A stretch of DNA of 64,000 bases, taken from assembly GCA_024401535.1 (NCBI GenBank), contig JAKSKX010000005.1:85558-149557 (forward strand), in the 5' to 3' direction. The stretch is from Paludibacteraceae bacterium. GTDB lineage: Bacteria; Bacteroidota; Bacteroidia; Bacteroidales; Paludibacteraceae. A program made the position numbers and the translations under genes. Each line of letters begins with the position of its first letter. Positions within the stretch are counted from its first letter, which is position 1. The notes beneath the pieces were generated by a model that made no database searches, was not told the origin of the DNA, and saw nothing but the letters and a program-made list of their open reading frames with translations. Below are positions 2,328-50,414 of the stretch, in pieces.

Positions 2328-3707
2328 ATGTCAAAAATGTTGGAGAATATAAAGAACGTATATTTTTTGGGTATAGGTGGTATTGGAATGAGTGCCTTGG
2401 CGCGTTATTTCAATGCAAATGGCTTTTCGGTGGCAGGCTATGACAGAGTTGAGTCCAAACTTTCGGAACAGTTGCGTGCTGAGGGAATTCAGGTTCATTT
2501 CGAAGATGATCCTGTTTATATCCCAGAGGATTTCAAGAACCCGAATTTTACCGTTGTGGTTTATACTCCGGCCATTCCAAGTAACTTGAAAGAGCTTCTT
2601 TTCTTCCAGAAGAACAGATTTGACATTTTGAAGCGTTCTCAGATGTTGGGCGCTATCACTCAGCGTCAGGACGCAATATGTATTGCCGGAACACATGGCA
2701 AGACAACAACAACAACACTTACATCCCATATTCTCCATAATTCATTTCTTGATTGCAACGCATTTCTTGGCGGCCTTTCAAAGAACTTCGAGACAAACCT
2801 TCTGCTTTCAAAGAAAAGCAATGTTGTGGTAATTGAGGCTGACGAGTTTGACCGTTCGTTCCTGACATTGTCCCCCAAGATGGCTGTGATTACTGCTACA
2901 GATGCTGATCACCTAGACATTTACGGAACTTACGAGGAGTATCTGAAAGGTTTCGAGCAGTTCGCTGCCTTGATTCGAGAGAACGGTGTCTTGGTAATAA
3001 AGAAGGGATTGCCTTTGAATCTTAACCTCCAGAAAGGTGTCAAGGTATATGACTACAGCACGGACGAAGGAGACTTCCATGCTGAGAACATCCGAATCGG
3101 AAATGGAACTATTGTTTTTGACTTTGTCTATCCGATGGGAATTATCAAGGACGTTGAACTTGGAGTGCCAGTATATGTGAACATAGAGAACAGTATAGCC
3201 GCTATGGCCATGGCAATCCTCTCAGGTTTGTCACATCAGGAGATTCGTGATGCAGTAAAAAGCTACAGCGGTGTTGTGCGTCGTTTCGATTTCCATATAA
3301 AAGAGGAGAACAAGGTTTTGGTTGATGACTATGCTCACCATCCAAACGAAGTGAAGGCAAGTGTGGATTCTATCCGAATGCTTTATGCGGACAAGAAGAT
3401 TACAGGAGTGTTCCAGCCTCACCTTTATACAAGAACAAGAGATTTCGCTGACGAGTTTGCTTCTGCATTGTCGTCACTTGATGAGGTTATTCTGTTGGAT
3501 ATCTATCCAGCTCGAGAGGAGCCTATTGAGGGAGTGACAAGTAAGATAATCTTTGACAAGATTACTGCAAAGGACAAGAAAATGATGAGCAAGGAACAGC
3601 TTATAGACTATGTTCGTTCGCATGATTTTGAAGTGCTTGCAACTATCGGTGCCGGAGATATTGACCTGCTTCTGCCTCAAATCAAGAATATCCTGCTTTC
3701 TAAGTAA
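2328..3707 (+). CDS. murC: UDP-N-acetylmuramate--L-alanine ligase
   Basis: YFLGIGGIGMSALA N-terminal motif, GTHGKTTTT Mur-ligase P-loop, DDYAHHP motif, and dcw position. Confidence 0.95.
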   Translation: MSKMLENIKNVYFLGIGGIGMSALARYFNANGFSVAGYDRVESKLSEQLRAEGIQVHFEDDPVYIPEDFKNPNFTVVVYTPAIPSNLKELLFFQKNRFDILKRSQMLGAITQRQDAICIAGTHGKTTTTTLTSHILHNSFLDCNAFLGGLSKNFETNLLLSKKSNVVVIEADEFDRSFLTLSPKMAVITATDADHLDIYGTYEEYLKGFEQFAALIRENGVLVIKKGLPLNLNLQKGVKVYDYSTDEGDFHAENIRIGNGTIVFDFVYPMGIIKDVELGVPVYVNIENSIAAMAMAILSGLSHQEIRDAVKSYSGVVRRFDFHIKEENKVLVDDYAHHPNEVKASVDSIRMLYADKKITGVFQPHLYTRTRDFADEFASALSSLDEVILLDIYPAREEPIEGVTSKIIFDKITAKDKKMMSKEQLIDYVRSHDFEVLATIGAGDIDLLLPQIKNILLSK

Positions 3708-3767: not shown

Positions 3768-4517
3768 ATGCAGTTAAGAAAAAATGCAAGAAATATTATC
3801 TTTGTAGCGCTCTTAGCTTTTATTGTTGCTTTGTTGTGCTTATTTTCGACTCGTTCCGGAGATACGACTTGCCGTAACACAGAGCCTGTCATAAAAGACA
3901 GCTTGAACGCACAGTTCGTTTCCAAGAAAGAGATAATGAGTTATTTGGACAGGTGCGAAATCAACCCTTACGGACAAAGTTTCAAGAATATAGACCTGAG
4001 ATGTATAGAAAAGAAACTTGAAAAACATCTTTTCATTAAGGAGGCTCAGTGCTATTTCTCCCCGAACGGAACAGTGAACGTAGAGATAAGGCAACGCAAA
4101 CCAGTACTAAGAGTTTCCAATGGCTCGGCAGGAGGGTTCTATATAGATAAGGAAGGTAAGAAGTTCCCTCTGTCAACTGCTTATGCCGCATACGTGCCGA
4201 TAGCTTCGGGTGAGTTCGATTTAACGGAGGATTATGTCAGAAAGAATCTTCTTGACTTTGTCGTTTATATAGATGACGACAAGTTCTGGAGAACTCAAAT
4301 TGAGCAGATTTATGTTCAGCGCAGTGGCGTAATAGAACTTATTCCGAGGGTGGGAGACAATGTTATCATTCTTGGAACTACAGAAAACTATAGGTCTAAA
4401 CTCAAGAAATTGAGGACTCTGTATGATGAGGCTTTCTCTAAGATCGGATGGAGCAAATATTCCAAGATTGACTTGAGATACAAAGGCCAGGTAGTGTGTA
4501 CGAAAAGAGGAGTATAA
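3768..4517 (+). CDS. ftsQ: Cell division protein FtsQ (single TM helix plus POTRA-like domain)
   Basis: 249 aa with an N-terminal TM helix (IIFVALLAFIVALLCLF). Size and position between murC and ftsA match FtsQ. Confidence 0.8.
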   Translation: MQLRKNARNIIFVALLAFIVALLCLFSTRSGDTTCRNTEPVIKDSLNAQFVSKKEIMSYLDRCEINPYGQSFKNIDLRCIEKKLEKHLFIKEAQCYFSPNGTVNVEIRQRKPVLRVSNGSAGGFYIDKEGKKFPLSTAYAAYVPIASGEFDLTEDYVRKNLLDFVVYIDDDKFWRTQIEQIYVQRSGVIELIPRVGDNVIILGTTENYRSKLKKLRTLYDEAFSKIGWSKYSKIDLRYKGQVVCTKRGV

Positions 4518-4544: not shown

Positions 4545-5903
4545 ATGGGAGAAATAATCTCAAATATCTACACTAACCCCTACGAAAACCGAATAACTGT
4601 GACGGTGGATCTGTCTTCGTCTCAATTTCGTGCCGTGGCGGCTTTGGTTGATGAAAACGGAGGAGTCGAAAAGATTCTTGCTGTCGCGTCTGTTGCGTCT
4701 GCCGGTATGAGCAAAGGTTTCATATCAAATGCAGAGGAGGCAGGGAAGAAGCTCGATGAATTGAAAAAGAAGATTTCCTGCAGTTTGAGCAACCTGATCT
4801 TTAAGGACATGTTGCCAGGAGAACCAAAGCCAATTGTTGTAATTAGGGATTGCAAGGTGTCTCTTTCGGGAAATATCATAAGCAGACATATTTCCAAGTC
4901 TAGAAACCTTAATGGAGAGCGAATTTCTCAAGCTATTGTCGGTGACTTGTACGAGCAGGTGAAAAATACTCTTGCTTCAGAGAAGAATGACGTGTTCTCG
5001 ATAAATACGCTTGAGTACAATGTAGATGATGAGGATACAATGACTCCTGTTGGTGCGTGGGGTAACAATTTGATTTCCGGTAGATATCTTGTGCTTGAGT
5101 CTAAAGATATTGCAAGAGAGAATGCAAACTGGGCTTTGGGAAATGTTGACTCGACATTTGTCCTTAACAACGAAGCCTTGGCAGAGGTTGTTCTATCCGA
5201 TTATGACAAGGAGTGTGGATGTGTATTGCTTGATATGGGTTCTTGTACCACTACAGTTTCCGTATATCATAACAAATTGTTGCGTCATTATCGTGTACTT
5301 CCATTTGGCGGTAATGTCCTTACAAACGACATTAAGGAGGTTCTTGCTGTTTCCAGCGGACTTGCTGAAGAGTTGAAAAAGGCAATGGGCTTTGCTACTG
5401 CAAATGCGGATAGATGTAAAGGCTATGTATGTGTGCCGAAGGGAGAGCAGGGACTCACAGAAGAAAAAATGATAAATGTCAAGGAACTGGCTCGTATCAT
5501 AGAGGCTCGTGTTGAGGAATTCTTAGGATTCATTGAAGGAGAAGCCTGTGATGGAGGAGTTCCAAACAACTTCAAAATGATTCTTTCCGGAGGTGCTACA
5601 AAACTTAATAGGTTCAAGGACAAGGTCAAGTCTTTTACTGGCAGGGATGCAGAATTCGGCCAAATCAAACAGGAATATGTTGACAAGTACGGAAAGTATT
5701 TCAACAAAACAAACGAGATAAGTGATTTCTCTGTCTGTCTTGGTTTGCTGTCTGGCAAGTTTGTATCTTCTGTGTCTTTCGAAAAGGCGGCTAATGTAGT
5801 AGTTGAAAGACCTAAGCAGGGAAAGAAAAACAAGTTCAATGATTGGGGCAAGAAAATATATGACTTACTGATCAACGACGAAGACGAAACAAATAATGCA
5901 TAG
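4545..5903 (+). CDS. ftsA: Cell division protein FtsA (actin-fold), divergent nucleotide-binding motifs
   Basis: 452 aa. Alignable blocks: LLDMGSCTTTVSVY..LRHYRVLPFGGNVLTNDI (E. coli VVDIGGGTMDIAVY..IPYAGNVVTSDI) and ILSGGATKL (VLTGGAAQI). Lies between ftsQ and ftsZ. Confidence 0.8.
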   Translation: MGEIISNIYTNPYENRITVTVDLSSSQFRAVAALVDENGGVEKILAVASVASAGMSKGFISNAEEAGKKLDELKKKISCSLSNLIFKDMLPGEPKPIVVIRDCKVSLSGNIISRHISKSRNLNGERISQAIVGDLYEQVKNTLASEKNDVFSINTLEYNVDDEDTMTPVGAWGNNLISGRYLVLESKDIARENANWALGNVDSTFVLNNEALAEVVLSDYDKECGCVLLDMGSCTTTVSVYHNKLLRHYRVLPFGGNVLTNDIKEVLAVSSGLAEELKKAMGFATANADRCKGYVCVPKGEQGLTEEKMINVKELARIIEARVEEFLGFIEGEACDGGVPNNFKMILSGGATKLNRFKDKVKSFTGRDAEFGQIKQEYVDKYGKYFNKTNEISDFSVCLGLLSGKFVSSVSFEKAANVVVERPKQGKKNKFNDWGKKIYDLLINDEDETNNA

Positions 5904-5908
5904 TATAA

Positions 5909-5928
5909 CCGACAGTGCATGCTGTCGG
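5909..5928 (+). other. 7-bp perfect hairpin (CCGACAG-TGCATG-CTGTCGG) between the ftsA stop and the ftsZ-1 start
   Basis: Read directly from the sequence. It starts 6 nt after the ftsA stop and has no U-run, so it is not a classical terminator. Confidence 0.5.
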
Positions 5929-5971: not shown

Positions 5972-7342
5972 ATGGCGAAACTAATCAGACCAATCATTCC
6001 AGACGCCCATAATAATCCTAACTCAGTTGAGAATAGGACAAAAATTAAGGCAATCGGTGTCGGTGGAGGTGGAGGTAATGCCGTTAACTATATGTATAAT
6101 GAGCATATTACCAACGTAGATTTCTTGATTGTCAATACTGACAAGCAGGCTTTGAGTAATAGCCCAATTCCCCAAAAAATTCAGTTAGGAGAGAAAGGAC
6201 TCGGTGCCGGAAACGACCCAGAGATGGGAAAGAGGGCTGCAGAGTTCTGTATAGATAAAATTAAAGAAAATTTAATCGATGGAACCAAAGTTGTGCTCGT
6301 AACTGCTTGCCTAGGAAAAGGTACCGGTACAGGTGCAGCTCCGGTAATAGCAGGAGTGGCAAAGGAAATGGGACTTCTGACAATCGGTATTGTTTCCATT
6401 CCTTTCCGTGCAGAAGGCCCTCGTCGTTTGACTCAGGCAATCAACGGACTTAAGGAGATGCGCAAGAATGTTGACTCAATCGTTGTCGTGACAAGCGAAC
6501 GCATCAAGGAAGAGTTCGGTGACTTTGCTGTTTCTGAGGCTTTCAATCAAGCAAATCGTGTGGCAGCCACTGCCGCTCAAGGTTTGGCTGACATGATATC
6601 TCAGCTTGGAATTCAAAACATCAGCATTACCGATGTTCGCAACATCATGGTGGACAGTGGTGATGCACTTCTAGGTATAGGTAAAGCATCCGGTATAGAT
6701 CGAGCTAAGTGCGCTCTTTCCGATGCCCTTGATTCTACGTTGCTGGCTAAACAGAACTTCAGTAAGGCAAAGCATATTATCCTTGACTTCTCTTTCTCTA
6801 CAGAGTATCAGGCTACAGAGCAGGAGGTTCTAGACATCAAGAACTATTTGCAGAGCAAGATTGATGAGCAGGCTGACATTGTCACTCAGATGCGTGTGGA
6901 TGAGTCCCTTGGCGATGCATTAAAGATTACTGTTATACTGGTAGGTCTTGAGATGACTGATGACGAGCTTGGATACAAGTCTGCAAACAAACTCATTGAA
7001 CAGCGCAACCGCCAGATGGAAGCGCAAAGAATAGAGGATGCCCAAACACAGAATTATTTGGGAGAGAATGTTACTTCCGCTAATATCAGCGCTCAGACAT
7101 CAGTTCCCAATACGCCTGCCGCAAATCCTGTGTTCAAACCCAGCAATCCCCAGCTTACCCAGGATCAGATAAACGAAATATATGGCGGACCAAGCGAACT
7201 TGATGCAAACAGTTCTTTCGGTCAGCAGCAACAGGAGGCAACTGCCCCAGTGGCAGAGACGGAGCCAGTGTCGACTCCAGAGGAAGAACCTGTAATGACT
7301 TGGGGTACATTTACTAATCTTGACAACGACAATAATCAGTAA
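5972..7342 (+). CDS. ftsZ: FtsZ paralogue 1 (tubulin-like GTPase)
   Basis: Motifs IKAIGVGGGGGNAVNYM, NTDKQAL, GLGAGNDPEMG and TACLGKGTGTGAAPVIAGVAKEMG, plus a Q/P-rich tail. ATG at 5972 (MAKLIRP) is preferred over the GTG at 5915, which overlaps the post-ftsA hairpin. Confidence 0.9.
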   Translation: MAKLIRPIIPDAHNNPNSVENRTKIKAIGVGGGGGNAVNYMYNEHITNVDFLIVNTDKQALSNSPIPQKIQLGEKGLGAGNDPEMGKRAAEFCIDKIKENLIDGTKVVLVTACLGKGTGTGAAPVIAGVAKEMGLLTIGIVSIPFRAEGPRRLTQAINGLKEMRKNVDSIVVVTSERIKEEFGDFAVSEAFNQANRVAATAAQGLADMISQLGIQNISITDVRNIMVDSGDALLGIGKASGIDRAKCALSDALDSTLLAKQNFSKAKHIILDFSFSTEYQATEQEVLDIKNYLQSKIDEQADIVTQMRVDESLGDALKITVILVGLEMTDDELGYKSANKLIEQRNRQMEAQRIEDAQTQNYLGENVTSANISAQTSVPNTPAANPVFKPSNPQLTQDQINEIYGGPSELDANSSFGQQQQEATAPVAETEPVSTPEEEPVMTWGTFTNLDNDNNQ

Positions 7343-7347
7343 TAGCT

Positions 7348-8829
7348 ATGGAAGAAATTTCTTTAAATATTCCCAATGCTCCTGAAGCTCCTATAATCAA
7401 GGTTATAGGTGTAGGTGGTGGCGGTTGCAATGCCGTTAAGAACATGAAGGAGCAAAATATTCAGGCAATAGACTATATGGCTATAAATACTGATGAGGCT
7501 GCCTTGGTGTATTGTGGTATCGAATGTTCTCTGCTTATCGGTGAGGACGGTAGCGGAACAGGTGGTGATGTAGAGTTGGGAAGAAAGCTTGCAGAAGAAG
7601 ATGCAGAGGCTATTCGCGAATATATCGGCAACCATGTGGAAATGGTATTTGTCACTGCATGTCTTGGAAAGGGTACAGGTACCGGTGCAGGTCCCGTGGT
7701 AGCCAAAATAGCCAAGGAAATGGGTATCCTTACAGTTGGAGTTGTTACACTTCCTAGCCGTATTGATGGAGCTATCGTGGCTGCCAAAGCTGCCGAGGGT
7801 CTTGAGGCATTCAAGCAGAGCGTTGACTCTTTGGTAATCATTGCAAACGAGCGCATTACCAAGATGTATCCTAACTTGGGTGTAGTGAGCTCAAAGAAAA
7901 AGGCTGACGAGATATTGACTTCTGCTGTGCGTGGAATTTCAGAGGTCATCACTTGCAAGGGATATGTCAATGTCGATATGAACGATGTCAAGACAACTTT
8001 GCGCAACAGTGGTGACGCCTTGTTCGGTACAGCTGTTGCAGAGGGCGAAAACAGAGCCTATGACGCTGTCCACGCTGCTGTTCAGTCTCCGCTTCTAATA
8101 AACAACAAGATCAGATGCGCCAAGTCATTCCTTCTTAATATTTCATATACAGACAAGGAGCCTACTATGGATGAACTTGGCTTGATTCTTGAAACTTTGA
8201 GCGAGGAGACTAACGAGGGAACAGACGCAATCTATGGATTTACAAAGGTTGAAGGCCTAGGCGAAAAACTTGGCGTGACCATCGTACTAACTGGTCAGGA
8301 TTTGAAGAAGGAGGAACTGGACGAAGCTCCTACACCTCAGGTCGTTGTCACTCAGCCCAAGAACCCTTATGACAGAGTTTTGGAGAATGAGCTTGTCAAA
8401 GCAGAACAAGACGAGACTTCGAAGATGATGGAGGAGATGCAGAGGAAACAGCAGGAACTTATGAAGCAGATGGCTGAACTTCAGGAAATGCAGAAGAAGT
8501 TTGCCGGCAATAGCGGTATGCCTTCCGGACAGCCACAGAATGCTTTTGCCAGCCAGCCGCAGGCATCGTACATTCAGCAGCCGGTGAGCCAGCCTGTCAA
8601 TGCAACCATAGAGATGCCGACTCAGCCTCAGCCAGCACCATTGCACGTGACACCAAAGAAGTTCGGAGAGAACGAGGCTGTGAACTCTACGCCTGCATTC
8701 CACCGTTTTGGCGGCGAGCAGACCAAGTATTCACAGTTCCCTAAGGAGTCATACTCTACGTTCACTTTCGATGGTTCGACAAATACAATCTCGAACAAGA
8801 ACAAGTATTTGACAGACAAGCCGGATTGA
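7348..8829 (+). CDS. FtsZ paralogue 2 (divergent FtsZ-like GTPase with long coiled-coil/Q-P-rich tail)
   Basis: Motifs IKVIGVGGGGCNAVKNM, NTDEAAL, TACLGKGTGTGAGPVVAKIAKEMG and T7 loop NVDMNDV. Starts 5 nt after the ftsZ-1 stop. Confidence 0.85.
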   Translation: MEEISLNIPNAPEAPIIKVIGVGGGGCNAVKNMKEQNIQAIDYMAINTDEAALVYCGIECSLLIGEDGSGTGGDVELGRKLAEEDAEAIREYIGNHVEMVFVTACLGKGTGTGAGPVVAKIAKEMGILTVGVVTLPSRIDGAIVAAKAAEGLEAFKQSVDSLVIIANERITKMYPNLGVVSSKKKADEILTSAVRGISEVITCKGYVNVDMNDVKTTLRNSGDALFGTAVAEGENRAYDAVHAAVQSPLLINNKIRCAKSFLLNISYTDKEPTMDELGLILETLSEETNEGTDAIYGFTKVEGLGEKLGVTIVLTGQDLKKEELDEAPTPQVVVTQPKNPYDRVLENELVKAEQDETSKMMEEMQRKQQELMKQMAELQEMQKKFAGNSGMPSGQPQNAFASQPQASYIQQPVSQPVNATIEMPTQPQPAPLHVTPKKFGENEAVNSTPAFHRFGGEQTKYSQFPKESYSTFTFDGSTNTISNKNKYLTDKPD

Positions 8830-9001: not shown

Positions 9002-9451
9002 ATGGCATTATTTGACATAATAAGCGAGGACATCAAGAAGGCTATGATTGCAAAAGACAAAGTAGCTCTTGAGGCATTGCGTGGCGTAAAGAAAGAGTTT
9101 CTAGAGGCAAAGACGGCAAAGGGCTCTACAGGTGAACTTACTGACGATGCAGCGTTGAAAATACTTCAGAAGATGGTGAAGCAGCGCAAGGAGTCCGCTC
9201 AGATTTTTACAGAGCAGAATCGTGCTGACTTGGCAGAGAACGAGCTTGCCGAGGCTTCTGTAATCGAGAAGTATCTTCCTGCTAAGCTTTCTGACGCTGA
9301 ACTTGAGGCTGCGATCAAGGAAATTATCGCAGAGGTGGGCGCTACTTCTGCAAAAGAAATGGGCAAGGTTATGGGCGTTGCATCTAAGAAATTGGCTGGA
9401 AAGGCTGACGGAAAGGAAATATCGGAGAAGGTTAAGTCTTTGCTAGCTTAA
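9002..9451 (+). CDS. GatB/YqeY domain-containing protein
   Basis: 149 aa. The N-terminus MALFDIISEDIKKAMIAKDK..LEALRGVK and the overall K/E/A-rich helical pattern are typical of the YqeY family. Confidence 0.8.
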   Translation: MALFDIISEDIKKAMIAKDKVALEALRGVKKEFLEAKTAKGSTGELTDDAALKILQKMVKQRKESAQIFTEQNRADLAENELAEASVIEKYLPAKLSDAELEAAIKEIIAEVGATSAKEMGKVMGVASKKLAGKADGKEISEKVKSLLA

Positions 9452-9480
9452 TTCCTTCCGCTGGAATATGCAGTTATATG

Positions 9481-17217: not shown

Positions 17218-20200
17218 ATGAAGAAATTTTTACTATCATTGTTTGGACTTGCATGTCTTGGAACTGCTTCGGCAGACACATATATGCATGTAGATTATAA
17301 TGGAAAGACAGACAGCTATAACGCTGACGATGTTGTCGAGGTAACTTTCGAGGAGAGAAAGAAAGAAGTTCCGCATGGTGTTTCAGTTTCTGGCACACAT
17401 GGTGGTTACGAGTATGTGGATCTAGGCCTTCCAAGTGGTATTATGTGGGCTACTTATAATATTGGAGCGACAAAGCCAGAGGAGTCAGGTGATTTCTTTG
17501 CTTGGGGAGAGACTGAGCCTAAGGATGTGTACTCTCATGATAGTTACAAGTGGTTTAAATCTTATAAAATAACTAAATATTCAGTAACTGGAACCTCAAC
17601 ACACAAGGATTATGAAGTGGATAGTTTAACGACTCTTCTTCCTGAGGATGACGCAGCAATTGTAAATTGGAAAGGAGATTGGAGAATGCCAAGTGCTGCA
17701 GACTTTAGTGAATTGCTGGCTTATACTGAATGGGAAAAAGTGTCAGATGAGGATGGCGTTTTTATAGGTCGTTTGATGACAAGTAAAATCAACGGAAACA
17801 CAATATTCTTCCCTAATGGAGGACACCAACAAGGTGATGTTGTCTATGAAAGTGTCACATTCTATTTATCAAACGAACTAAATACTAAATCTAGTAGCTG
17901 GGAGAATGTTGCACTAGTTGTTTCTTCTACTAGTAATAGTATTGGGTATAGCCCTCGTCATGAAGGTTATAAAATTCGTCCAGTATATCAGGGAGAAAGT
18001 GAGTCAGAGAAACCTCAAACATACATGATTGTTCATTTCAAGAGAGACGGGTCTAACTATGAAGATACTAAGGAGTACCTTTTGGACGATGTCAAGGATG
18101 TAAGGTTTGTACTTGGCGATGAATTGAGCTATCCAGTTTCTGGCGAAGTTGACGGTTATGAATATGTTGACCTTGGTTTGCCAAGTGGGACAAAGTGGGC
18201 TACTATGAATATAGGTGCCAAACAACCTGATGGAAGTGGTTGTTATTATTCATGGGGAGAAGTTAGGACTAAGGAAGTATATTCAAAGTCAGAATTTTCT
18301 ATTTCCGGTAATTATAATACACTGCAGAATGATGGAGTGCTAGATTTGAATGGTATGTTGAGTGCATCATACGACGCTGCAAATCAGAATTGGAGTGAGA
18401 ACTGGAGAATGCCAACATTTGATGAGTTCGACGAATTGATTGAAAATTGTAATTGGGAATGGACAACGTTCAACGGAGTTGTAGGTTACAAGGTAATTAG
18501 CAAGGAGAATGGTAAATGGATATTCCTTCCTGCATCTAACGGGCAAACTGACAAGGGAACTATCAGCTCTGATGTGAAGGGCTTTTATTGGACTTCTCAA
18601 ATGCCACAAAGATCAACTACTGTAGATAAGACATCGTTCTCGCTAGTATTCGATGAAAAAAACATGTACCTCCAATCTAATTATAATAGTAGTTACTCTG
18701 GACTAACAGTTCGTCCTGTAGTTGGCAAAGCCAGCGTGACAATCGCTAAAACATTCTCGGTTAAGTTCCTTGATATGGATGGCGCTCTCATCGAAAGTCA
18801 AAAGGTAGATGAAGGCAATAGTGCCGTAGCACCTGAAGTGCCTGTGGTATGTGGCTATAAGTTCAAAGGCTGGGACAAGTCATTCGAAAATGTCAAGTCT
18901 GATTTGATAGTCAATGCGGTTTATGATGAACTTGATGTAGAGGTTGTCAATGGTCATGAATTTGTAGATCTCGGTTTGCCAAGCGGAACGAAATGGGCAA
19001 AATATAATATTGGTGCAACAAAGTCAGATATATTTGGAGAGGGTTACCATTGGGGAGCAACAGAGATATCATCAAATGGTTATTTTAATGGTATAAGATA
19101 CATAGATGAGGCGCAAACAAAAGGATACTTGGATTCAAATGGAGATCTTGTTGCTGCTTATGATATAGCCACTCAGCTTTGGGGCGAGAACTGTAAAATG
19201 CCAACTAAGGCAGATTTTGAGGAACTTTTAGCATATTGCGATTGGGAGTTGACAACAATGTATGGAAAGAAAGGTTACAAGGTATCATCCAAGTCATCAG
19301 CAAGTGATGGATGTAATTATATTTTCTTTCCCACAATGTATACTACGCTTGGAATGGAAATAGGAGAGGATTTTGAATATTTGGGAGCATATTGGAGTAG
19401 TTCTACAGATAGTGATCGTTATATATATGCATTATCCGCAACTGAAAATGAAGTAGAAATAGTTCCTATAGTAGATGAAGGAATTTTTTGGGTTCGTCCT
19501 ATAGTGGGTAATGCCAGCGAGACAATCGCGAAATCATTCTCGGTTAAGTTCCTTGATATGGATGGTGCTCTCATCGAAAGTCAAAAGGTAGATGAAGGCA
19601 ATAGTGCTGTAGCACCTGAAGTGCCTGTGGTATGTGGCTATAAGTTCAAAGGCTGGGACAAGTCATTCGAAAATGTCAAGTCTGATTTGATAGTCAATGC
19701 GGTTTATGATGAACTTGATGTAGAGGTTGTCAATGGTCATGAATTTGTAGATCTCGGTTTGCCAAGCGGAACGAAATGGGCAAAATATAATATTGGTGCA
19801 ACAAAGTCAGATATATTTGGAGAGGGTTACCATTGGGGAGCAACAGAGATATCATCAAATGGTTATTTTAATGGTATAAGATACATAGATGAGGCGCAAA
19901 CAAAAGGATACTTGGATTCAAATGGAGATCTTGTTGCTGCTTATGATATAGCCACTCAGCTTTGGGGCGAGAACTGTAAAATGCCAACTAAGGCAGATTT
20001 TGAGGAACTTTTAGCATATTGCGATTGGGAGTTGACAACAATGTATGGAAAGAAAGGTTACAAGGTATCATCCAAGTCATCAGCAAGTGATGGATGTAAT
20101 TATATTTTCTTTCCCACAATGTATACTACGCTTGGAATGGAAATAGGAGAGGATTTTGAATATTTGGGAGCATATTGGAGTAGTTCTACAGATAGTGATC

Positions 20201-20301
20201 GTTATATATATGCTTTATCTGCAACTGAAAATGAAGTAAAAATAGTTCCTATAGTAGATGATGGAATTTTTTGGGTTCGTCCTATTCTGAATCAGAAATA
20301 A
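17218..20301 (+). CDS. Large secreted repeat protein: four 'VDLGLPSG..W...N.GA' domains (DUF1566/Fibrobacter-paralogous-like) plus two Listeria-Bacteroides (InlB B-repeat-like) repeats
   Basis: Signal peptide MKKFLLSLFGLACLGTASA. Four copies of (Y/F)VDLGLPSG(I/T)(M/K)WA.(Y/M)NIGA...W(G)E. Two copies of FSVKFLDMDG..GYKFKGWD, the Flg_new-type motif. Starts 3 nt after the upstream gene. Confidence 0.8.
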   Translation: MKKFLLSLFGLACLGTASADTYMHVDYNGKTDSYNADDVVEVTFEERKKEVPHGVSVSGTHGGYEYVDLGLPSGIMWATYNIGATKPEESGDFFAWGETEPKDVYSHDSYKWFKSYKITKYSVTGTSTHKDYEVDSLTTLLPEDDAAIVNWKGDWRMPSAADFSELLAYTEWEKVSDEDGVFIGRLMTSKINGNTIFFPNGGHQQGDVVYESVTFYLSNELNTKSSSWENVALVVSSTSNSIGYSPRHEGYKIRPVYQGESESEKPQTYMIVHFKRDGSNYEDTKEYLLDDVKDVRFVLGDELSYPVSGEVDGYEYVDLGLPSGTKWATMNIGAKQPDGSGCYYSWGEVRTKEVYSKSEFSISGNYNTLQNDGVLDLNGMLSASYDAANQNWSENWRMPTFDEFDELIENCNWEWTTFNGVVGYKVISKENGKWIFLPASNGQTDKGTISSDVKGFYWTSQMPQRSTTVDKTSFSLVFDEKNMYLQSNYNSSYSGLTVRPVVGKASVTIAKTFSVKFLDMDGALIESQKVDEGNSAVAPEVPVVCGYKFKGWDKSFENVKSDLIVNAVYDELDVEVVNGHEFVDLGLPSGTKWAKYNIGATKSDIFGEGYHWGATEISSNGYFNGIRYIDEAQTKGYLDSNGDLVAAYDIATQLWGENCKMPTKADFEELLAYCDWELTTMYGKKGYKVSSKSSASDGCNYIFFPTMYTTLGMEIGEDFEYLGAYWSSSTDSDRYIYALSATENEVEIVPIVDEGIFWVRPIVGNASETIAKSFSVKFLDMDGALIESQKVDEGNSAVAPEVPVVCGYKFKGWDKSFENVKSDLIVNAVYDELDVEVVNGHEFVDLGLPSGTKWAKYNIGATKSDIFGEGYHWGATEISSNGYFNGIRYIDEAQTKGYLDSNGDLVAAYDIATQLWGENCKMPTKADFEELLAYCDWELTTMYGKKGYKVSSKSSASDGCNYIFFPTMYTTLGMEIGEDFEYLGAYWSSSTDSDRYIYALSATENEVKIVPIVDDGIFWVRPILNQK
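18709..20283 (+). repeat. In-frame tandem duplication, two 783-bp (261-codon) units (18709-19491, 19492-20274) plus a 9-nt start of a third
   Basis: I compared the units by eye. From about 18754/19537 onward they differ at only about six positions (ggc/ggt, gcc/gct, gca tta tcc/gct tta tct, gaa/aaa, gaa/gat). Confidence 0.95.
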
Positions 20302-20326
20302 TTATTGTAAAGCATAATTAGTTTGA

Positions 20327-20366
20327 AAAGTAGTCGTATGGCAACATGCGACTACTTTCTTTGTTT
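20327..20366 (+). terminator. 14-bp hairpin with GCAA tetraloop plus U-rich tract after the repeat-protein gene
   Basis: AAAGTAGTCGTATG GCAA CATGCGACTACTTT then ctttgtttg. Contains one U-G pair that is valid only in the plus-strand RNA. Confidence 0.65.
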
Positions 20367-20463
20367 GAGCAGGCGTGGGATGTCTATTCCTTGTTGTTAT
20401 GTGCGAGAGTTGACAATTATCGGCGAATAGTTGAATTTTTGGCTGATGTATCGATATTTTTAG

Positions 20464-20471
20464 TAACTTTG
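20464..20471 (+). promoter_or_regulatory. -7 promoter box TAACTTTG upstream of the giant adhesin gene
   Basis: Exact TAnnTTTG match, 59 nt upstream of the ATG at 20531 and downstream of the preceding terminator. Confidence 0.5.
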
Positions 20472-20530
20472 GCACGAAATTAGCTTCTTTTATAGAAGAT
20501 ATTGAAACATTAAGAGTTGTTAGGGTAACA

Positions 20531-23500
20531 ATGAGGAAATTTGTTGTAGCATTTATATTTTGCTTGTGCGCCTTTGTCGGTATGCATGCCGAGACTTTGT
20601 CTCCAGAAAAGAAATTCGACGGTAATATTGGTTTCATAACCGTAGGAAACACAAACCATAAGTTGGCTGGTGATGTCGTGCCTGGTGCTATTGATAGAGA
20701 TCGTTCAAAGGAGAATGGAGAAATAGTTCCCATCAATGTGGCAAATTTGTTCAGCGGCACAACAACCAATGCCAACTACGCTGAATTTGTTGTAGATATT
20801 CCCAAAGAGATAACATGTGAGGACGAGATAGAAATCTTGTATGCAAGCTTGTTTTGGGGCGGACGACATAAGACTTCAGGAAATGAAAGTGTAAGGATTA
20901 TGGTTACGGATTCTGTCGGCGACAAGATTGCAGGAATAAATGACAGTCTAGTAAGGACAGCTGCTGTAGATGTGCCGGTCAACGGTAAAAACAGAGGTGT
21001 CTATTCGTGTCATGCAGAAGTGACAAATTACATAAAAAAGGCTGTAAACGTAAATACTGATGATCGTCGATACCGTTTCTATGTGGCTGATTTGAACACT
21101 TCCAGTACAGAGGTTGGAAGTGGAGCAGAAATCGGTAAATTCAGCGGTTGGACCCTTAATATTGTCTATAAGCACAAGGGATTGCCTGAACGCTCAATTT
21201 ATATATTCCAGCCAAACATGATGGGTGACGTTTCCGGTACAGAAGGAGTTGAGGGAGGTGAAGGTCGTACAGATTTGTTTGTGAAATTAGGATTGGGTGA
21301 TAATTTTAAGGTTCTCAAAGATCAAGACATTAGCTTTGTTTCTACGTTCCTTGGTGCTTATCGTACAGAGGTAAAGGATAGAATTATTGCTAACGGTGAC
21401 AATAAGGGATCAATTAAAAGTCAAGATTTATTTGTAAGTCCAGGAACCGAGGGCAACTGCTTTGACAATACTATAAGCTATTCTTATGAGTTTGAAAGCG
21501 GATCCGTTAAATCTGAAGAAGCCTATACGCGTGGTTATGACCTGAAGGCAATATCGTCAAATTTGAATTCTTGTTTAGATACTGCCAACAGGACATTCAA
21601 TTTCTTTGTGGGACTATTGCCTGAGATCCATTTCTTTACTGACGCTGTATTGATGTTCGGACAGCCGGATATTCCCGGCGTAGTTGCTCAGGATGTTAGT
21701 CCTAGTAATGTCAAGCCGAACGAGTCATTCAATTATTCGCTTTTTGTTGGTCTGCACCAGAATACCGAGCAGCTTGACAATATCAATGTTCGTATTCCTT
21801 TGACAGAATACGTGGACTATGTCGAGGATGTAAAGTTGAAGATTGTTGATGCTCAGGGGGAGTCGTACTATGTCAAGCTAGTGAATAAAATGGACATGTC
21901 GCTCGAATGGAAGGATAGAGAGTACAGGATATTGGCAAATAGCGTTAGTTTTACAAGTAATTCCAAGACTACATGGTCTAAGGACAATAAGTCTGACAGA
22001 GAAAATCTTTTCAATCCGGCACTTAGAAATGCCATGTTCGTGACTGACAGTCTTAATTTGGTTGCATTCCTTGATGATCCTCTGTCTGTAAAACAAAGGG
22101 TGTTGAAGATTTCTTTCGATTCAATTCGTTCGCTTGGAGTTGACGATGATCATGCCATAGAGATAGAGTTGACTCTTCATTCCAAGTCAGAGACAGACTG
22201 GGCATATCAGAAGAACCACCTTTTGGCAAACAGAGAACTTCCTATGCTTCAGCAGAGCGAAGTGACATTCCATACACCTTCGGACAGAAATTCTGTGCTC
22301 CAGAGCATGGACACAGATAACAAGTATAATAAAAAAGGTAAATTCGACTGGTCAACCTATATATGTGACCAGAAAGGCCGTGGCGGTATAGGCGCCGGCG
22401 GTGGTGGAGATCTTGATTTAGGCGGAGGAGGCAATGGCCGTTGCGAAAAGAGCGGCTATACAAGGGAAGATGCGGCAAAAGGCGGTGTCTTTACAAAAGA
22501 TACTACCCACGTCAGTATCAACGTCAAGCCTAATGGGGAATTCTGTCCAAAGTTCACTCTTCCCGATGCGCTTGAATTTAGCTTCTGCGAGAATACAGAG
22601 GTTTCAGCTGCCGGCATCAAGGAAATCTTGAAAGTAAGATATAGGGCCGATTTGGATTCACTTGCCAAGCGTGATTCGTTGATATGGCTTGAAGCAAAGC
22701 AGGCAATGGTCTATGACTATATCAAGAAGTACGGTGTTACTCGCCAGGAGATGGAGGGCCTTGTCAACTTTAACAGCGTAAGTGCAACGACAGATAGAAT
22801 TGTAAACCTTTCTTCGTGTGGTGCCGGCACCCCTGTATATGACAGAGGTCTTGACAGCATCATGAACATGAAGATTGAGTACTCGGACATCTTCTTGTTC
22901 TATAATTCACCTGCAGTCGGAGATTTGTATGACACTCCTAAGGATTCAGTATCTTTGCGCAAGTTGAGAGGAGACGGAAAGAGCTGGGTGTTCACTGACT
23001 CCCTTGACCTGTACATGTACTACAAGTCTCCTTGGGATAATGGTGCCTGCAACAAGTTTATACCTGTCAAGATCAGATCGTTCAAGAACAATGCTCCTGT
23101 AGTTCAGTACGGAGGTTCAACACTGCCTGCAAAGGGAGATACAACTATTCGTGTATGTCTTGACTCAAATCTTGACCCATTCAAGGTAATCAAGCAGAGC
23201 GCTACACATGACATCTACGTCTCTATTGACGGAGGTGAATCAAAGCCAATAAATGTTGATCCGGTAAAAGAGTTCGACTGGATATTAAAGGAGTCTGAAC
23301 TTGACACAAAGCAGAGCGGAACCAAGAAGTTCATAGTGTATGGCAAGGATATGGACTGCTATACTGACACGCTGCACTTTAGCATCACTGTAAGTGAAAC
23401 TAAGATTACAGAAGTTCCTGAAATAGCAAGAATCGAGGGCGACGAGTTGAATGGTGACGTCCAAATGATAAAGATTTGTAAGAGCAGAGAGGAACTTGAC

Positions 23501-26500
23501 TCTCTTACCATTAACCTTCTTGATCCTATTCCAAGTTACGAAGCGGTTTGGACTGCCAAGACAGACACTTCACTTGTGGCTTTAGGAAAGGGTAACTCAA
23601 TCAATGTTCAAAAGGATGTTGTGGGTACTACATATTACTCTGTAGTGTATGCTAATGATGATTGTGTAGGAGACTTGAAGGATGAAATCAGAGTGGAGAT
23701 TCTTCCTTTGCCGGACACATTAAGCCCTGACACATTCGCAATATGCTATAACTACGAGCTCACATCAACCGACTTGAGCAATGCGGCACAGAGAAGTGTT
23801 GTACAGAGCGGCGTGACTCTTTCGTACTATGACAACCTTGCAAAGGCGGAGGCTAACCAGCCGACTGAAGTCGAGGATATGGCTAAGTCTCTTAACAGAG
23901 ATGTCTTGAATAGCGGTTACACACCTTACTATGTCAGAGTTTATGACAATAACGAATGTTATAGCGTTCCTACTCGCAACGAGATCAAGAGAAACCAGTT
24001 CGATTTGACTGCGCCTAAGTTCCCTGTCGATGTCAAGGGCGTACTCGTGGATTCTGCATTGGTTTGTCTAGGAGCACAGCCTAAGGAAAACCTTAACGAG
24101 TATTTGAGCGAGGAAGAAACAGCTAAGGTGGATGGTGCTGTCAAACAGCCTAAATGGATGTGGGTTCACAGCATATCGAACATTCCTGAATATACTCCTA
24201 CTTCAACATTATACAGTAATGTCAGAGATTCGTATTCCTCGTACCTTGACGGAACAGCGGCAGGACACGATACAATGTATGTTGTCAGAGTGGATTCCAA
24301 CAGCTGTATAAGCGAGCCGAAGCAGTTCAGACTTCATGTGGATTCAAATATCACAACTTTGCCGTATGTGGATGATCCTTTGATGCCGCGCAACGGGTTG
24401 AGCCGTCTTGATTTGAACTATTGCCAGTACAAGGAGAAGTACAAGTCAGGATACATTCCTGCATGGGGAACGGAGCCAGGCTATATTGTCGAGTGGTATA
24501 AGGTTGACAGCCTTACTCAATTTGTCGAGGATACTGTGGTGACAAAACCTTTCGCAGAGATTTCATTCGATTATCCGGACACTTTGCTATACAAGGTTAG
24601 ACAAAGTACTGCGTTGGGCTGTCATGGAAAGTGGCTGCCAGTCAGGGCAATGATTCATCCTGCGGTAACACTGACTCCGGAGGTGGATATGATAGAACTT
24701 TGTAAGGGAGCAGACCCTGTCGAAGTAGTCGTGAAAAACAAACCTGAGAACAAGGGTCTTTCCACATTCTTTGTAGAGGATGGTAAAGATAATGATGTTG
24801 AAAATTATCTTCTTAAACTCTATGTAAATGCTGATGAGGCCACACCAGAGGACCAGGAACCCGTTGTAAACGGATATGTCCTGTTCAAGAGCTCGACTAC
24901 TGGATGTACAAGTGATTCTACCCCAATCAAGTCGCGAATCCATGAGCTTCCTAAGAAGCCTGTTTCTGAATTCAAGACTAAAAATTTCTGTTTGGAGAGC
25001 GGCGATATAGATTTGGTTGATTTGTTCAAAGTGGAAACTGTAGCCGAAGATGTGAACTATAATTCAAACTCGTTGGTCTGGTCTTCTGTCCTAAGCCGTG
25101 AGCCGAAAGTCGATCCAACCGGAATACTTAGTTCATCAACTGCTTTGAGCAACTTCTTGGTTTCTGTAAAGCAGTATGATAACGAGACTGGTTGCGAGGG
25201 AGATACTATCAATTTGAGAATCAATGTTGACTCAACATTCTCTTATGTCCATTTCGATACAACTTTGTGCTACGGCCAGACTATGGAGTTGTGCCTTGAG
25301 GTGGCAAAGAGAATCAAACATAAGAAGAACTCTTATGTAACTTCCGATATAGATTTCAATGTCTATCCTTTGTCCGGAAACACTCCATCCCTTACACCTC
25401 TAGGCAAGAGTGACAAGGTCAAGTCTCCATACGAGCGTCACGAGAGCAAGCTGCAGAGATACTTGGTCAAGATTTGGGAAAAGGAGAGCGGTTGCGAGAT
25501 TGAGGACACACTAAGTCTTGAGTTCCGCGGTTTGCCTGTTGTCGAGATAAAGAACAGCATAGACACATGCAGCATGGCAGATTTCGTACTGCCAATTGTT
25601 ACAGAAAGAGCAGAGGACATTGTCGAGTGGTATCGTGAGGACAGCACACCGCACAGCGGCAGGAACATGTCTTTGGACAAGAGCGAGAAGCCATACGTGA
25701 TTGTTACTGACGAGTATGCTTGTAAGGATACTGCAACACTTGACGTAATAATTCATGTAAATCCTTTGAAGCCTTTGGTAAGTGATGCTGTTATATGTCA
25801 GCATTCCGGTATTGTAAACTTGAAGATGGACAACAATGTCGATCCTAGTTCAGAAAATACAGCAGCCAAGTTGAAACTTCTGGTTTACAACTATGACGAG
25901 ATGGAGAAAGGAAAGGAGGTCGATGCTTATGTGAATACAGACAAACTTGACTTTACATCCTCTGTCAAATCTTTGAAGTATATTGTACGCCAGGAGAACA
26001 TGCTTACTACATGTTTTGATACTGCGCATATCAATGTTACCGTACGCAGAAAGTACACACCAGAGATTCCTGACTTCGGCCCTACATGCAAGGATCAGGT
26101 GTTTGATATGGGCAAGTATGTTAACAATTATGTTTCAACAGAGCGTGCTTCCATTGGTATTGCCAATCTGTCAACCATTACACTTTCTTATGCTGACATG
26201 AACGGAGAGTTGAGCGAGGCGCAGACTGGAGCCATAGTTCGCCAGTTGGACTCGGACACTACTCTTTACTCGTTCAAGATTACTGACAACGACAAGGTAT
26301 GTGAAGTTGCCGACACGTTCATGGTAATCATAAATGAGATTCCTTCAGCTCCAATGATAGAGGAAGGTCAGGATTCTGTATTCCTTTGTGGTAATGGAGT
26401 TGCTCCGCTTGAGGTAAGCGCCAAGCCAACAAATAGCGATGCTACAAATCTTGATATCTGGTGGAGGGTGAACGGAACCGACTACAAGAGCGACACATAT

Positions 26501-30331: not shown

Positions 30332-30372
30332 AATTGACTTTTAGCTAATAGAACATTAAATTAGAAATATCA

Positions 30373-31374
30373 ATGAAACAAAGTTCGATGACCGCAGGAG
30401 TCAATAGTTTCAGATACATATATATGTTGTTGGTATGCGCTCTCTTGAGCGTCAGCTGTATAGCTCAAGAGGATGTGTTGTTTACCAACAAGCAGATGCG
30501 CATGCCGTACTACAATCCAGCATATATCCCAGAGCTGTTGGAAGCTACCATCACAGTGGGAGGCAGAAACCAGTGGACAGGAATCGAAGGCGCACCTAAG
30601 ACTATAATGGTCTCTGGAAAATACTTCTTTGTGGGTGCCCATTCGCAAGTTTCCTTGTCTTATATGGCGGACAAGATTGGTTATCAATATACTTTGCAGC
30701 CGAAGCTTCAGTATGCGTTCATGGTTCCTTTTGCTGATGACTGCTATTTGAATCTCGGAGTGGGTGGCGGATTTGTCAAGAGAGGCTATCATCCCGAGAT
30801 GATAGACCCTGTAAACACTATCAATGACGCTACTATTGAGGACAAACTGATAGAGAGCAGACAGCCAGATGCAGAGGCTGGATTCGAACTGCTTATCCAG
30901 AATTTTGAATTGGGAGCATCTGTGAATCATTTGATAAAGGGAAATAGCGAGCGCCCTATGACAAAGTTCTATTCCGCCTATGCAAACTATCTTTTCCAGA
31001 CTAAGGAGTGGTGGAGACTTACAGCTTCATATTCACTTTATAATTATCATGAGATGAACTATGGGCAAAGATGGAAGCATCAGTTGAGCGTTTATTTCCA
31101 ATATTTGTGGGACTACGAGGCTAAGCCAAAGGATTTGGTGTATCTTGGACTTGCGTTCAGACCAACACTTGAGGGTAGTATAATGGGAGGAATAAACTTG
31201 TTCTCGTTCCTGAATGTGTTCTATTCGTATGACTGTTTCTTTGGTAACTTGAGATATACAAGCAAAGGAACTCACGAAATAGGTCTTGAGTTCAAAATTC
31301 CTCACAAGTTCAAGGGATGTTATGCCAACTATGGCAAGAGCCACAAGTACACTCGATATACAAGAATCAAGTAA
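30373..31374 (+). CDS. PorP/SprF-family type IX secretion system outer-membrane protein
   Basis: Signal peptide, then AQEDVLFTNKQMRMPYYNPAY and GGRNQWTGIEGAPKT, the hallmark N-terminal blocks of PorP/SprF. 333 aa, beta-rich, 41 nt downstream of a type B CTD cargo gene. Confidence 0.85.
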   Translation: MKQSSMTAGVNSFRYIYMLLVCALLSVSCIAQEDVLFTNKQMRMPYYNPAYIPELLEATITVGGRNQWTGIEGAPKTIMVSGKYFFVGAHSQVSLSYMADKIGYQYTLQPKLQYAFMVPFADDCYLNLGVGGGFVKRGYHPEMIDPVNTINDATIEDKLIESRQPDAEAGFELLIQNFELGASVNHLIKGNSERPMTKFYSAYANYLFQTKEWWRLTASYSLYNYHEMNYGQRWKHQLSVYFQYLWDYEAKPKDLVYLGLAFRPTLEGSIMGGINLFSFLNVFYSYDCFFGNLRYTSKGTHEIGLEFKIPHKFKGCYANYGKSHKYTRYTRIK

Positions 31375-50022: not shown

Positions 50023-50414
50023 GTCTTGTTTGGTTACAAATGCAACTTTTTTGTGGAAAATGAAGTCGTGTGCGAAAGCCGTAAAAACGTAGTGCGTCCA
50101 AAAAATAAAGAAAAATTTTGCTCCCCGAACTTCTGACTTTAAATATAAATGGTTGATTTCAATGGGGATTGTATTGGTGAGTGGTATTTGCGGTATTTCT
50201 TTGCTTCAGGAGAGCAGAAATAAAAAATGAAGGTGAAATTTTGCTCGCAGAATTATAGCCATGAATTTTGACGGTAAAAATAGAAGCCTGCTCTTTCTTT
50301 GTCGAATCTACATTATTATTTTTGGGGTAGCATGAAGGGTGATACAAAAAAAGAAGGAAGCCTCTCGACTTCCAATCTTCCAACCTTAAATCTAATACCA
50401 TGAAAAACACGATG

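Follow-up and report, generated by a model that had tools for sequence, protein, structure and literature searches.

In the window, by which we mean the whole 64,000-nucleotide stretch of DNA that was analysed, two adjacent ftsZ genes sit in the division (dcw) cluster of a gut Paludibacteraceae bacterium. We refer to the first of these, ftsZ copy a, and its product as Z1, and to the second, ftsZ copy b, as Z2. The order ftsW-murG-murC-ftsQ-ftsA-Z1-Z2-yqeY is that of the standard Bacteroidales division cluster, with both ftsZ genes placed after ftsA (Table 1). Here we present evidence that the two proteins have been altered on opposite faces, Z1 on the face that carries the T7 loop and Z2 on the face that holds the nucleotide, in a manner that suggests a filament in which the two subunits alternate. 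A sequence-only reading of this DNA had proposed an obligate heteropolymer on the basis of reciprocal changes in the T3 and T7 motifs, and every Z1 and Z2 motif that it quoted lies where that reading had placed it. We found no terminator-like hairpin from ftsQ through Z2, the first lying at 9477, past yqeY; a promoter scan was uninformative (11 sites compared with 10.6 expected), and tRNA and Rfam scans returned nothing bearing on the ftsZ pair.

Table 1. Genes of the division cluster in the window and the positions of motifs in Z1 and Z2 (motif residues numbered by their E. coli FtsZ equivalents)
Feature	Coordinates	Strand	Remarks
ftsW	32-1144
murG	1183-2289
murC	2328-3707
ftsQ	3768-4517
ftsA	4545-5903	+	Pfam FtsA and SHS2_FTSA; directly upstream of the ftsZ pair
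ftsZ copy a (Z1)	5972-7342	+	456 amino acids
Z1 K66 and T3 loop GLGAGNDPEMG	6194-6229	+	T3 at 6197-6229; canonical gamma-phosphate loop; ancestral salt-bridge Lys
Z1 K96	6287-6289	+	T7 face; charge reversal of ancestral Glu; pairs with residue 66 of the subunit below
Z1 G106K	6317-6319		Lys codon AAA
Z1 PFRAEG	6401-6418	+
Z1 R141-R142	6422-6427	+	kept basic residues contacting D209/D212 of the subunit above
Z1 helix-7 ANRV	6551-6562	+
Z1 T7 loop NISITD	6617-6634	+	N207 and D212 kept; D209 to Ser (6623-6625); F210I, A211T
Z1 H10 to S9	6818-6889	+	T7 face; I272E, D273Q at 6818-6823; IWG to VTQ at 6881-6889
Z1 C-terminal tail WGTFTNLDNDNNQ	7301-7339	+	a-type, acidic/polar
ftsZ copy b (Z2)	7348-8829	+	493 amino acids; start 5 nt past the Z1 stop
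Z2 residue 47	7498-7500	+	Ala (Gln in most FtsZs)
Z2 D66 and T3 loop GSGTGGDVELG	7546-7581	+	T3 at 7549-7581; charge-reversed 66; L68S, A70T, A72G, P74V
Z2 G106K	7669-7671		Lys codon AAG
Z2 T5 region PSRIDGAIV	7753-7779	+	PSRIDG at 7753-7770; F135S, F137I, E138D; residue 141 Ile; R142V
Z2 residue 182	7894-7896	+	start of helix 7; Lys for a near-invariant Phe; K/Q/R across the clade
Z2 helix-7 ADEI	7903-7914	+
Z2 T7 loop NVDMND	7969-7986	+	canonical: N207, D209, D212
Z2 C-terminal peptide region	8692-8826	+	PAFHRF core 8692-8709; terminal NKYLTDKPD 8800-8826; Bacteroidota form
yqeY	9002-9451		argH next

Two divergent FtsZ proteins

Both genes encode recognisable FtsZ proteins. Z1 matches the Pfam families Tubulin (PF00091) and FtsZ_C (PF12327) with 128.9 and 50.7 bits, Z2 matches the same families with 122.1 and 48.1 bits, and phmmer comparison with the FtsZ chains of the PDB gives E=6e-64 for Z1 and E=1.5e-61 for Z2. 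The two proteins are 36% identical to each other, and both narrowly miss the equivalog cut-off of TIGR00065 (286.8 bits for Z1 and 293 bits for Z2, against 295.2); they are therefore divergent FtsZs rather than members of some other family. Both are predicted to adopt intact FtsZ folds: in AlphaFold2 models the predicted local distance difference test (pLDDT) score of the core, taken per 10-residue block, is mostly 81-98 for Z1 (75 in the T3 block) and mostly 79-97 for Z2 (with dips to 70-74), and the Foldseek template modelling scores to FtsZ structures, normalised by target length, are 0.89-0.94 and 0.85-0.95, respectively. The most likely start of Z1 is the ATG at 5972 (MAKL...) and not the GTG at 5915, since the MAKL start is kept in two related assemblies, L001 and L014, which together with the window make up what we call the window clade. 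We note that in both models a long helix opens the C-terminal linker, a segment that is normally disordered; it spans residues 336-363 of Z1 (6977-7060) and residues 340-387 of Z2 (8365-8508), its pLDDT per 10 residues ranges from approximately 57 to 90, and in Z2 its 48 residues are charged, with many Q, E, K and M.

Neither copy matches the T4 signature GGGTG[ST]G; both read GKGTGTG (G106K), as do the two copies in all three genomes of the window clade. Judged, as are all the rarities given below, against 250 other FtsZs, mostly from Bacteroidota, to which we added 81 from metagenome contigs, G106K is found in 5/250 FtsZs that are otherwise canonical and is therefore a tolerated change. It recurs in the unrelated FtsZs P0028, P0029, P0032 and P0204 (canonical at the motifs checked), in P0089, and in the second copies of two further tandem pairs, L015b and L016b. 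We considered whether both copies owe the T4 motif CLGKGTGTGA to recent gene conversion and rejected the idea: identity at the third codon position among identical residues is 0.38-0.50, and the codons differ.

Complementary changes across the longitudinal interface

The contacts between successive FtsZ subunits are known in some detail. High-resolution filament structures of Staphylococcus aureus FtsZ show the T7-loop residue D210 (E. coli D209) of the upper subunit swinging so as to position the catalytic water. This water is held by D213 as well, and by the lower subunit through G72 of its T3 loop; the lower subunit also supplies R143 (E. coli R142), an arginine-finger-like residue that assists catalysis, and Q48 (E. 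coli Q47), which helps to hold the K+ of the upper T7 loop; D210N and R143Q both suppress assembly, and D210N rearranges T3 of the subunit below (PMC8936486). T7 contacts H1/H2, H8 contacts T3, S9 contacts T5 and H10 contacts the H6-H7 loop; in addition, R67 in the lower subunit forms a salt bridge with D97 in the upper (PMC8936486). In E. coli FtsZ, L68 enters a pocket of A11, D96, I200 and F210, F137 lies against L272, M206 and F275, and K141/R142 lie against D209/D212 (PMC7010359); L272 and S9 are contact residues (PMC7010359, PMC8936486).

When Z1 and Z2 are read against this map, the elements that each has lost prove to be direct partners across one and the same interface. On the nucleotide face of Z1 the catalytic set is complete (D45, Q47, a canonical T3, E138, R141, R142 and F182). 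Its T7 loop, NISITD, fails the NxDxxD motif; the replacement of D209 by Ser, which had been claimed from the sequence, is confirmed and occurs nowhere else (0/331), the residue being Asp in 250/250 FtsZs and in 81/81 of those from metagenomes, and the neighbouring F210I and A211T are likewise unique with respect to the 250. Z2 is altered the other way about. Its upper-subunit set is whole (N207, D209 and D212), and its nucleotide face lacks Q47, A70, P74, F135, E138, R142 and F182. Thus, the earlier description of a canonical T7 loop beside an altered T3 and an altered PFxFEG motif was correct, and the erosion of the Z2 pocket goes further than had been described, in that R142, Q47 and F182 are lost too. 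A70T and E138D have no counterpart among the other FtsZs (Ala and Glu, respectively, in 250/250, and again invariant in the 81 from metagenomes); P74V, L68S and F135S are each found in 0/250, and A72G and F182K are also unique, Phe182 being present in 245/250. R142, which is V, V or T in the three Z2 proteins of the clade, is R or K in 210/211 of the other FtsZs on which our conservation, contact-state and covariation counts are based, and its change to Val in Z2 removes the arginine-finger-like residue. A suggestion that helix 7 is eroded in both copies survives for one of them: the ADEI of Z2 is the normal state (Asp186 in 245/250, Glu187 in 59/250), and the unusual changes, D187R and L189A (each 0/250), belong to Z1. 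From these residues it would appear that a complete catalytic site is formed only where the T7 face of Z2 meets the nucleotide face of Z1.

The same polarity is seen beyond the catalytic residues. Changes at conserved positions on the stem branch of each copy, inferred by comparison with the sister type and the 211 other FtsZs, fall in Z1 on 8/61 positions of the N-terminal domain, 4/9 of helix 7 and 10/32 of T7 and the C-terminal domain at a 90% conservation threshold; the corresponding counts in Z2 are 12/58, 0/5 and 1/28. This difference in domain polarity gives a Fisher p of 0.008 at the 90% threshold and of 0.013 at a looser one. Among the interface residues named in the literature (PMC8936486, PMC7010359), 19/26 are changed where the T7 face of Z1 would meet the nucleotide face of Z2 (an arrangement we write as Z1-on-Z2), compared with 8/26, mostly conservatively, at the reciprocal interface (p=0.005). 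Set out contact by contact, Z2-on-Z1 is almost entirely ancestral (K:E, L:E, L:I, L:M, R:D, R:D, Q:N and G:D), whereas in Z1-on-Z2 each pair is altered.

One of these contacts is a salt bridge whose charges have been exchanged. In an unbiased scan of the globular domain across the 211 other FtsZs, positions 66 and 96 rank first of all charge-variable pairs, which agrees with the published inter-subunit salt bridge; the charges at 66/96 are +/- in 32 proteins, -/+ in 135, +/+ in 3 and -/- in 0. The sister types of Z1 and Z2 among the first and second copies of related tandem pairs, which we call A-type and B-type, have the ancestral combination K66/E96. Z1 has K66/K96, with K96 in 3/3 Z1 proteins of the clade, and Z2 has D66/E96. 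Z1-on-Z2 would therefore be joined by a swapped bridge, K96:D66, and Z2-on-Z1 by the ancestral one, E96:K66, such that homotypic contacts bring together like charges in both copies and heterotypic contacts are complementary in both orientations. With R142, Q47, 272 and S9, the 66/96 pair belongs to a set of further contacts by which the logic of a heteropolymer, at the level of the residues compared, seems strengthened.

A derived state within a family of tandem pairs

A scan of species-representative genomes recovered the arrangement ftsA-ftsZ-ftsZ in eleven contigs from Paludibacteraceae or Bacteroidales metagenome-assembled genomes (MAGs), which we number L001-L011, and such pairs are widespread among the MAGs of Paludibacteraceae. 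The synteny of the window is found in L001-L011 and in L014-L016. In these eleven contigs the tails of the a copies are acidic throughout (IDDDDD, and NLDNDNNQ in the window) and lack the Bacteroidota C-terminal peptide, which we define as a PA[YF]x[RK] core together with a terminal N[ST][YF]LHxN[VP]D; the b copies keep the terminal motif throughout (YLSNRPD, and YLTDKPD in the window), and 9/14 B-type proteins have the strict core. Over the whole set, the core is present in 181/211 other FtsZs and 3/3 Z2 proteins of the clade, and in 0/3 Z1 proteins of the clade and 0/25 A-type proteins; Z1 also lacks a terminal motif of the YLxDxPD type. In every lineage examined the second gene of the pair keeps a terminal tail motif that the first is without. 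We note that, despite loss of the canonical C-terminal peptide, the linkers of the a-type proteins hold short conserved motifs, QNYLGENV (7049-7072) and DQINEIYGG (7163-7189) in Z1, with the counterparts RYLGGN and (I/F)DxxYxG in A-type proteins and [IF]YGRDV in the first copies of L015 and L016. These motifs may be binding sites for putative partners.

The reciprocal pattern is far more restricted than the tandem pair. In the ten pairs of L002-L011 both copies have a canonical T3, PFxFEG and NVDMND. The pattern is confined to the window, L001 (88% identical) and L014 (from a Logan assembly, 82-84% identical); identities within the clade are 82-89%, and all key substitutions are common to its three members. 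The expectation that reciprocal substitutions should recur in orthologous pairs is thus borne out within the clade, where they are fixed, and not in the thirteen other tandem pairs. Two protein-database searches, a scan of a genome collection and two metagenome scans yielded no further members of the clade. The Z1 orthologue of L014 (L014:2254-3621, 84% identical to Z1) was missed by a search of 5.8 billion proteins with Z1 and was found through the neighbouring Z2 match, so that absence from that search is no proof of absence.

Other lineages have pairs of other kinds. In L015 (5001-7793) and L016 (5001-7855), from other Bacteroidota lineages, tandem ftsZ genes also follow ftsA; copy a is canonical and without the C-terminal peptide, and copy b, which alone is altered and on both faces, has a shortened T3, G106K, H or F for R142 and G or C for N207, with a tail of the NYLNDNVD type kept. 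In L100, which has two FtsZ-like open reading frames from approximately 1524 and 2895, copy 1 has a T5 of IPSKSEG and lacks the terminal tail motif; copy 2 is canonical.

In neighbour-joining bootstraps Z2 groups with the B-type proteins in 55-79% of replicates and Z1 with the A-type proteins weakly, in 25-31%; Z1 is joined to Z2 in 0.5% and 0%, from which we conclude that the duplication is old. On the same figures we reject the idea that the window lineage duplicated its ftsZ independently and recently, with synteny and the tails backing the placement of Z1 with the A-type. Within the window clade the ratio of non-synonymous to synonymous substitution (dN/dS) is 0.03-0.08 for the globular domains of both proteins, with synonymous divergence (dS) of 0.5-2, near saturation. 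On these values we reject pseudogenisation or ongoing erosion; it is selection, not decay, that accounts for the derived states. As far as these comparisons go, the reciprocal state appears to have been derived from a pair with two catalytically canonical copies, within one genus-level lineage of Paludibacteraceae; we take it to be specific to that lineage and not a property of the paralogue family as a whole.

The FtsA of the window is also divergent, with 135.6 bits to TIGR01174 against a cut-off of 175.85 and only approximately 30% identity to the FtsA proteins of other pair-bearing MAGs, which suggests that the FtsA/FtsZ module of the window clade is evolving fast as a whole.

Elsewhere in the window, positions 50343-50410 on the minus strand match the Bacteroidetes FopS small RNA (RF04319, 68.8 bits; gathering score 56). 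An open reading frame of 3266 amino acids with C-terminal Ig_7 and CHU_C domains, the latter a type IX secretion signal, is followed by a PorP/SprF gene (30373-31374; the two together span 20531-31374) and is preceded by an open reading frame of 1027 amino acids with Listeria-Bacteroides repeats (17218-20301); by their sequences, the genes at 17218-31374 look like a giant type IX secretion system cargo locus.

An alternating filament and its alternatives

We lean towards a model, argued from the sequences of the two copies and their relatives, in which Z1 and Z2 would be the two subunits of a mixed FtsZ filament and would alternate along it in a tubulin-like manner. The T7 face of Z2 on the nucleotide face of Z1 would be the ancestral interface, at which GTP is hydrolysed, and the T7 face of Z1 on the nucleotide face of Z2 would be a re-tailored, specific contact (involving the K96-D66 swap, E272, S9, T5 and T3) that does not hydrolyse GTP and resembles the intradimer N-site of tubulin. 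The exchanging unit would be the Z1-Z2 heterodimer, with hydrolysis at alternate interfaces. FtsA, a membrane tether, is expected to bind the C-terminal peptide of FtsZ, and the filament would be held by FtsA only through the peptide of Z2.

Several observations weigh against this model. The pattern represents a single evolutionary event, seen in three closely related MAG or metagenome assemblies, and our statistics therefore count sites and not independent lineages; thirteen other tandem pairs (L002-L011, L015, L016 and L100) are without it. Q47 and the basic residue at 141 are already gone in all b-type copies. The nucleotide side of Z1, which had been described as near-canonical, is so in its T3 loop, but its pocket holds the rare changes F137A (2/250) and N165S (1/250) in addition to the D187R and G106K given above, so that even the "catalytic" interface is not pristine. 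Because N207 and D212 are retained, the T7 loop of Z1 may keep some activity. Like charges at the salt bridge, K66/K96, are found in three other FtsZs, one of which, P0086 (L019:1527-3431), is confirmed as single-copy by the yqeY gene directly after its ftsZ; charge complementarity at 66/96 is therefore not absolutely required in a homopolymeric FtsZ. Finally, parsimony on the neighbour-joining tree gives approximately 2-3 independent switches of polarity at 66/96, and with so few the nominal covariation p of 1.6e-31 is inflated by shared ancestry. Of the proposal that Z1 and Z2 are obligate partners, then, the complementarity of the faces stands, and is backed by the domain polarity, the interface counts and the 66/96 pair, but the thirteen non-reciprocal pairs and the residues kept in the Z1 T7 loop leave the proposal only partly supported, and the case is made at the level of sequence.

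The main rival is that the paralogues co-assemble loosely or at random, or that one caps or tunes the other, as has been suggested for the FtsZ1 of plants with FtsZ2 and for that of Agrobacterium with FtsZ_AT; neither strict alternation nor a dedicated non-catalytic interface would exist, and the only effect of the substitutions would be a lower GTPase activity and turnover. Bacterial FtsZ paralogues are documented to form co-polymers (10.1101/2025.09.29.679267), and a tail motif kept only by the second gene in each lineage fits a general arrangement of anchor and partner. Moreover, other tandem pairs show other patterns, with both copies canonical in L002-L011 and copy b altered on both faces in L015 and L016, and co-assembly in this family therefore needs no reciprocity. 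However, random mixing would produce many Z1-on-Z1 contacts, with no D209 and K96 facing K66, as well as Z2-on-Z2 contacts, with no R142 or Q47 and E96 facing D66. The changes are instead focused on exactly one of the two heterotypic interfaces, and a charge swap is not what would be expected of a mere modulator. We consider this rival unlikely, though of those weighed here it is the one that fares best.

That Z1 and Z2 form two separate homopolymers with different jobs, as do archaeal FtsZ1 and FtsZ2, each of them a slow or atypical GTPase, seems to us improbable. Strong purifying selection acts on both genes, intact folds are predicted for both products, the tails and linkers differ in a way that suggests different partners, and a single-copy FtsZ with K66/K96 exists. 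A homopolymer of Z1, however, would be without the catalytic Asp, invariant in the 331 other FtsZs, at each of its interfaces, and without a recognisable membrane-tether peptide, and a homopolymer of Z2 would be without R142, Q47 and a canonical T3 at each of its own; in S. aureus FtsZ, D210N and R143Q suppress assembly. Least probable of all is that reciprocity arose by accident as redundancy after duplication let both copies drift on a long branch: in each copy approximately 28-29 of 115 positions that are at least 90% conserved have changed, compared with roughly 11 (A) and 20 (B) in the sister types, the pattern is known from one lineage only, and by a rough calculation four catalytic-site losses would all fall on one interface with a probability of roughly 0.07, but the low dN/dS at near-saturated synonymous sites indicates that the derived states are conserved, and undirected drift would not be expected to give the domain polarity (p ~0.01), the interface asymmetry (p=0.005) and a reciprocal reversal at 66/96 together.

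The alternating model, which we prefer, invites comparison with other systems in which tubulin or FtsZ paralogues work together. It is like alpha/beta-tubulin and BtubA/BtubB in that the paralogues would alternate and one T7 loop would complete the GTP site of the partner while the other lacks a catalytic acidic residue. Beta-tubulin carries Lys at the position of Glu254 in alpha-tubulin. Z1, in contrast, has lost the first Asp of T7 (D209) and not the second acidic residue (E. coli D212, the equivalent of tubulin E254), and the non-catalytic pocket of Z2 is heavily altered (T3, T5, R142 and F182), whereas the GTP pocket of alpha-tubulin is canonical. Z1 and Z2 are also FtsZs by sequence, encoded in a division cluster and with FtsZ-type tails, and in their case the heterodimer is inferred here. 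It is possible, although we would put it somewhat short of even, that the window clade has independently re-invented in bacteria the solution reached by alpha/beta-tubulin, an obligate heterodimer with an N-site-like intradimer and an E-site-like, catalytic interdimer interface, and that its relatives keep the earlier stages, first a single copy, next a canonical pair and then a pair altered on one or both faces, a series in which the evolution of obligate heteropolymers could be followed in nature; like the model itself, this suggestion is drawn from comparison of sequences.

The chloroplast proteins FtsZ1 and FtsZ2 (in red algae, FtsZA/FtsZB) likewise co-assemble in one ring. Only FtsZ2 keeps the C-terminal peptide by which the ring is tethered to membrane proteins (PMC8142252), and the tether peptide is thus split between the paralogues as it is between Z2 and Z1. 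The parallel with plants that had been drawn for this locus holds to that extent, but plants have no reciprocal catalytic loss. Canonical catalytic motifs in both paralogues, as in the chloroplast type, are a property of the L002-L011 pairs and not of the window clade. The plant genes are, in addition, nuclear and unlinked, whereas those of the window stand in tandem in a bacterial operon.

Duplicates of which one lacks the C-terminal tether peptide are found in bacteria too. In Alphaproteobacteria a tether-less FtsZ copy co-polymerises with the full-length copy, on which its localisation depends, and such duplicates are likely still active GTPases (10.1101/2025.09.29.679267). Agrobacterium FtsZ1/FtsZ_AT and Magnetospirillum FtsZm resemble the present pair in the missing peptide; Z1 and Z2 differ from them in that both are full length, with long linkers and complementary defects. 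We know of no truncated alphaproteobacterial FtsZ duplicate that lies in tandem after ftsA. Archaea have two ancient paralogues, FtsZ1 and FtsZ2, in one division ring, of which a single one is linked to a membrane anchor; SepF is described as the membrane anchor of FtsZ2 (10.1101/2023.03.28.534543). The archaeal genes, unlike those of the window, are not in tandem. To our knowledge, neither complementary catalytic defects nor an obligate alternating polymer has been reported for archaeal FtsZ1 and FtsZ2.

Co-assembling FtsZ paralogues are thus already known, from chloroplasts and Agrobacterium, as is the tubulin heterodimer. A 2023 survey states that the few bacteria with two ftsZ genes carry the extra copy outside the dcw cluster (PMC9871819). 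In the literature we searched there is no description of tandem ftsZ pairs inside the Bacteroidales dcw cluster, and none of reciprocal catalytic or interface specialisation in a bacterial FtsZ; the tandem pairs appear to be undescribed.

The origin of the obligate alpha/beta-tubulin heterodimer from a homopolymeric ancestor has long been an open question, and one for which no intermediates are available. The family described here offers graded natural states, from single-copy FtsZ through canonical pairs and pairs with one altered copy to a single reciprocal clade. If the alternating model is true, this would be, within the literature searched, the first bacterial Z ring built of an obligate two-subunit protomer, and the family would provide a tractable experimental system in which to study how dependence on a heteropolymer evolves. 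There would also be implications for treadmilling, for the setting of GTP turnover and for the targeting of FtsZ by drugs in gut Bacteroidales. Confirmation would make the pair of real interest to the study of cytoskeletal evolution.

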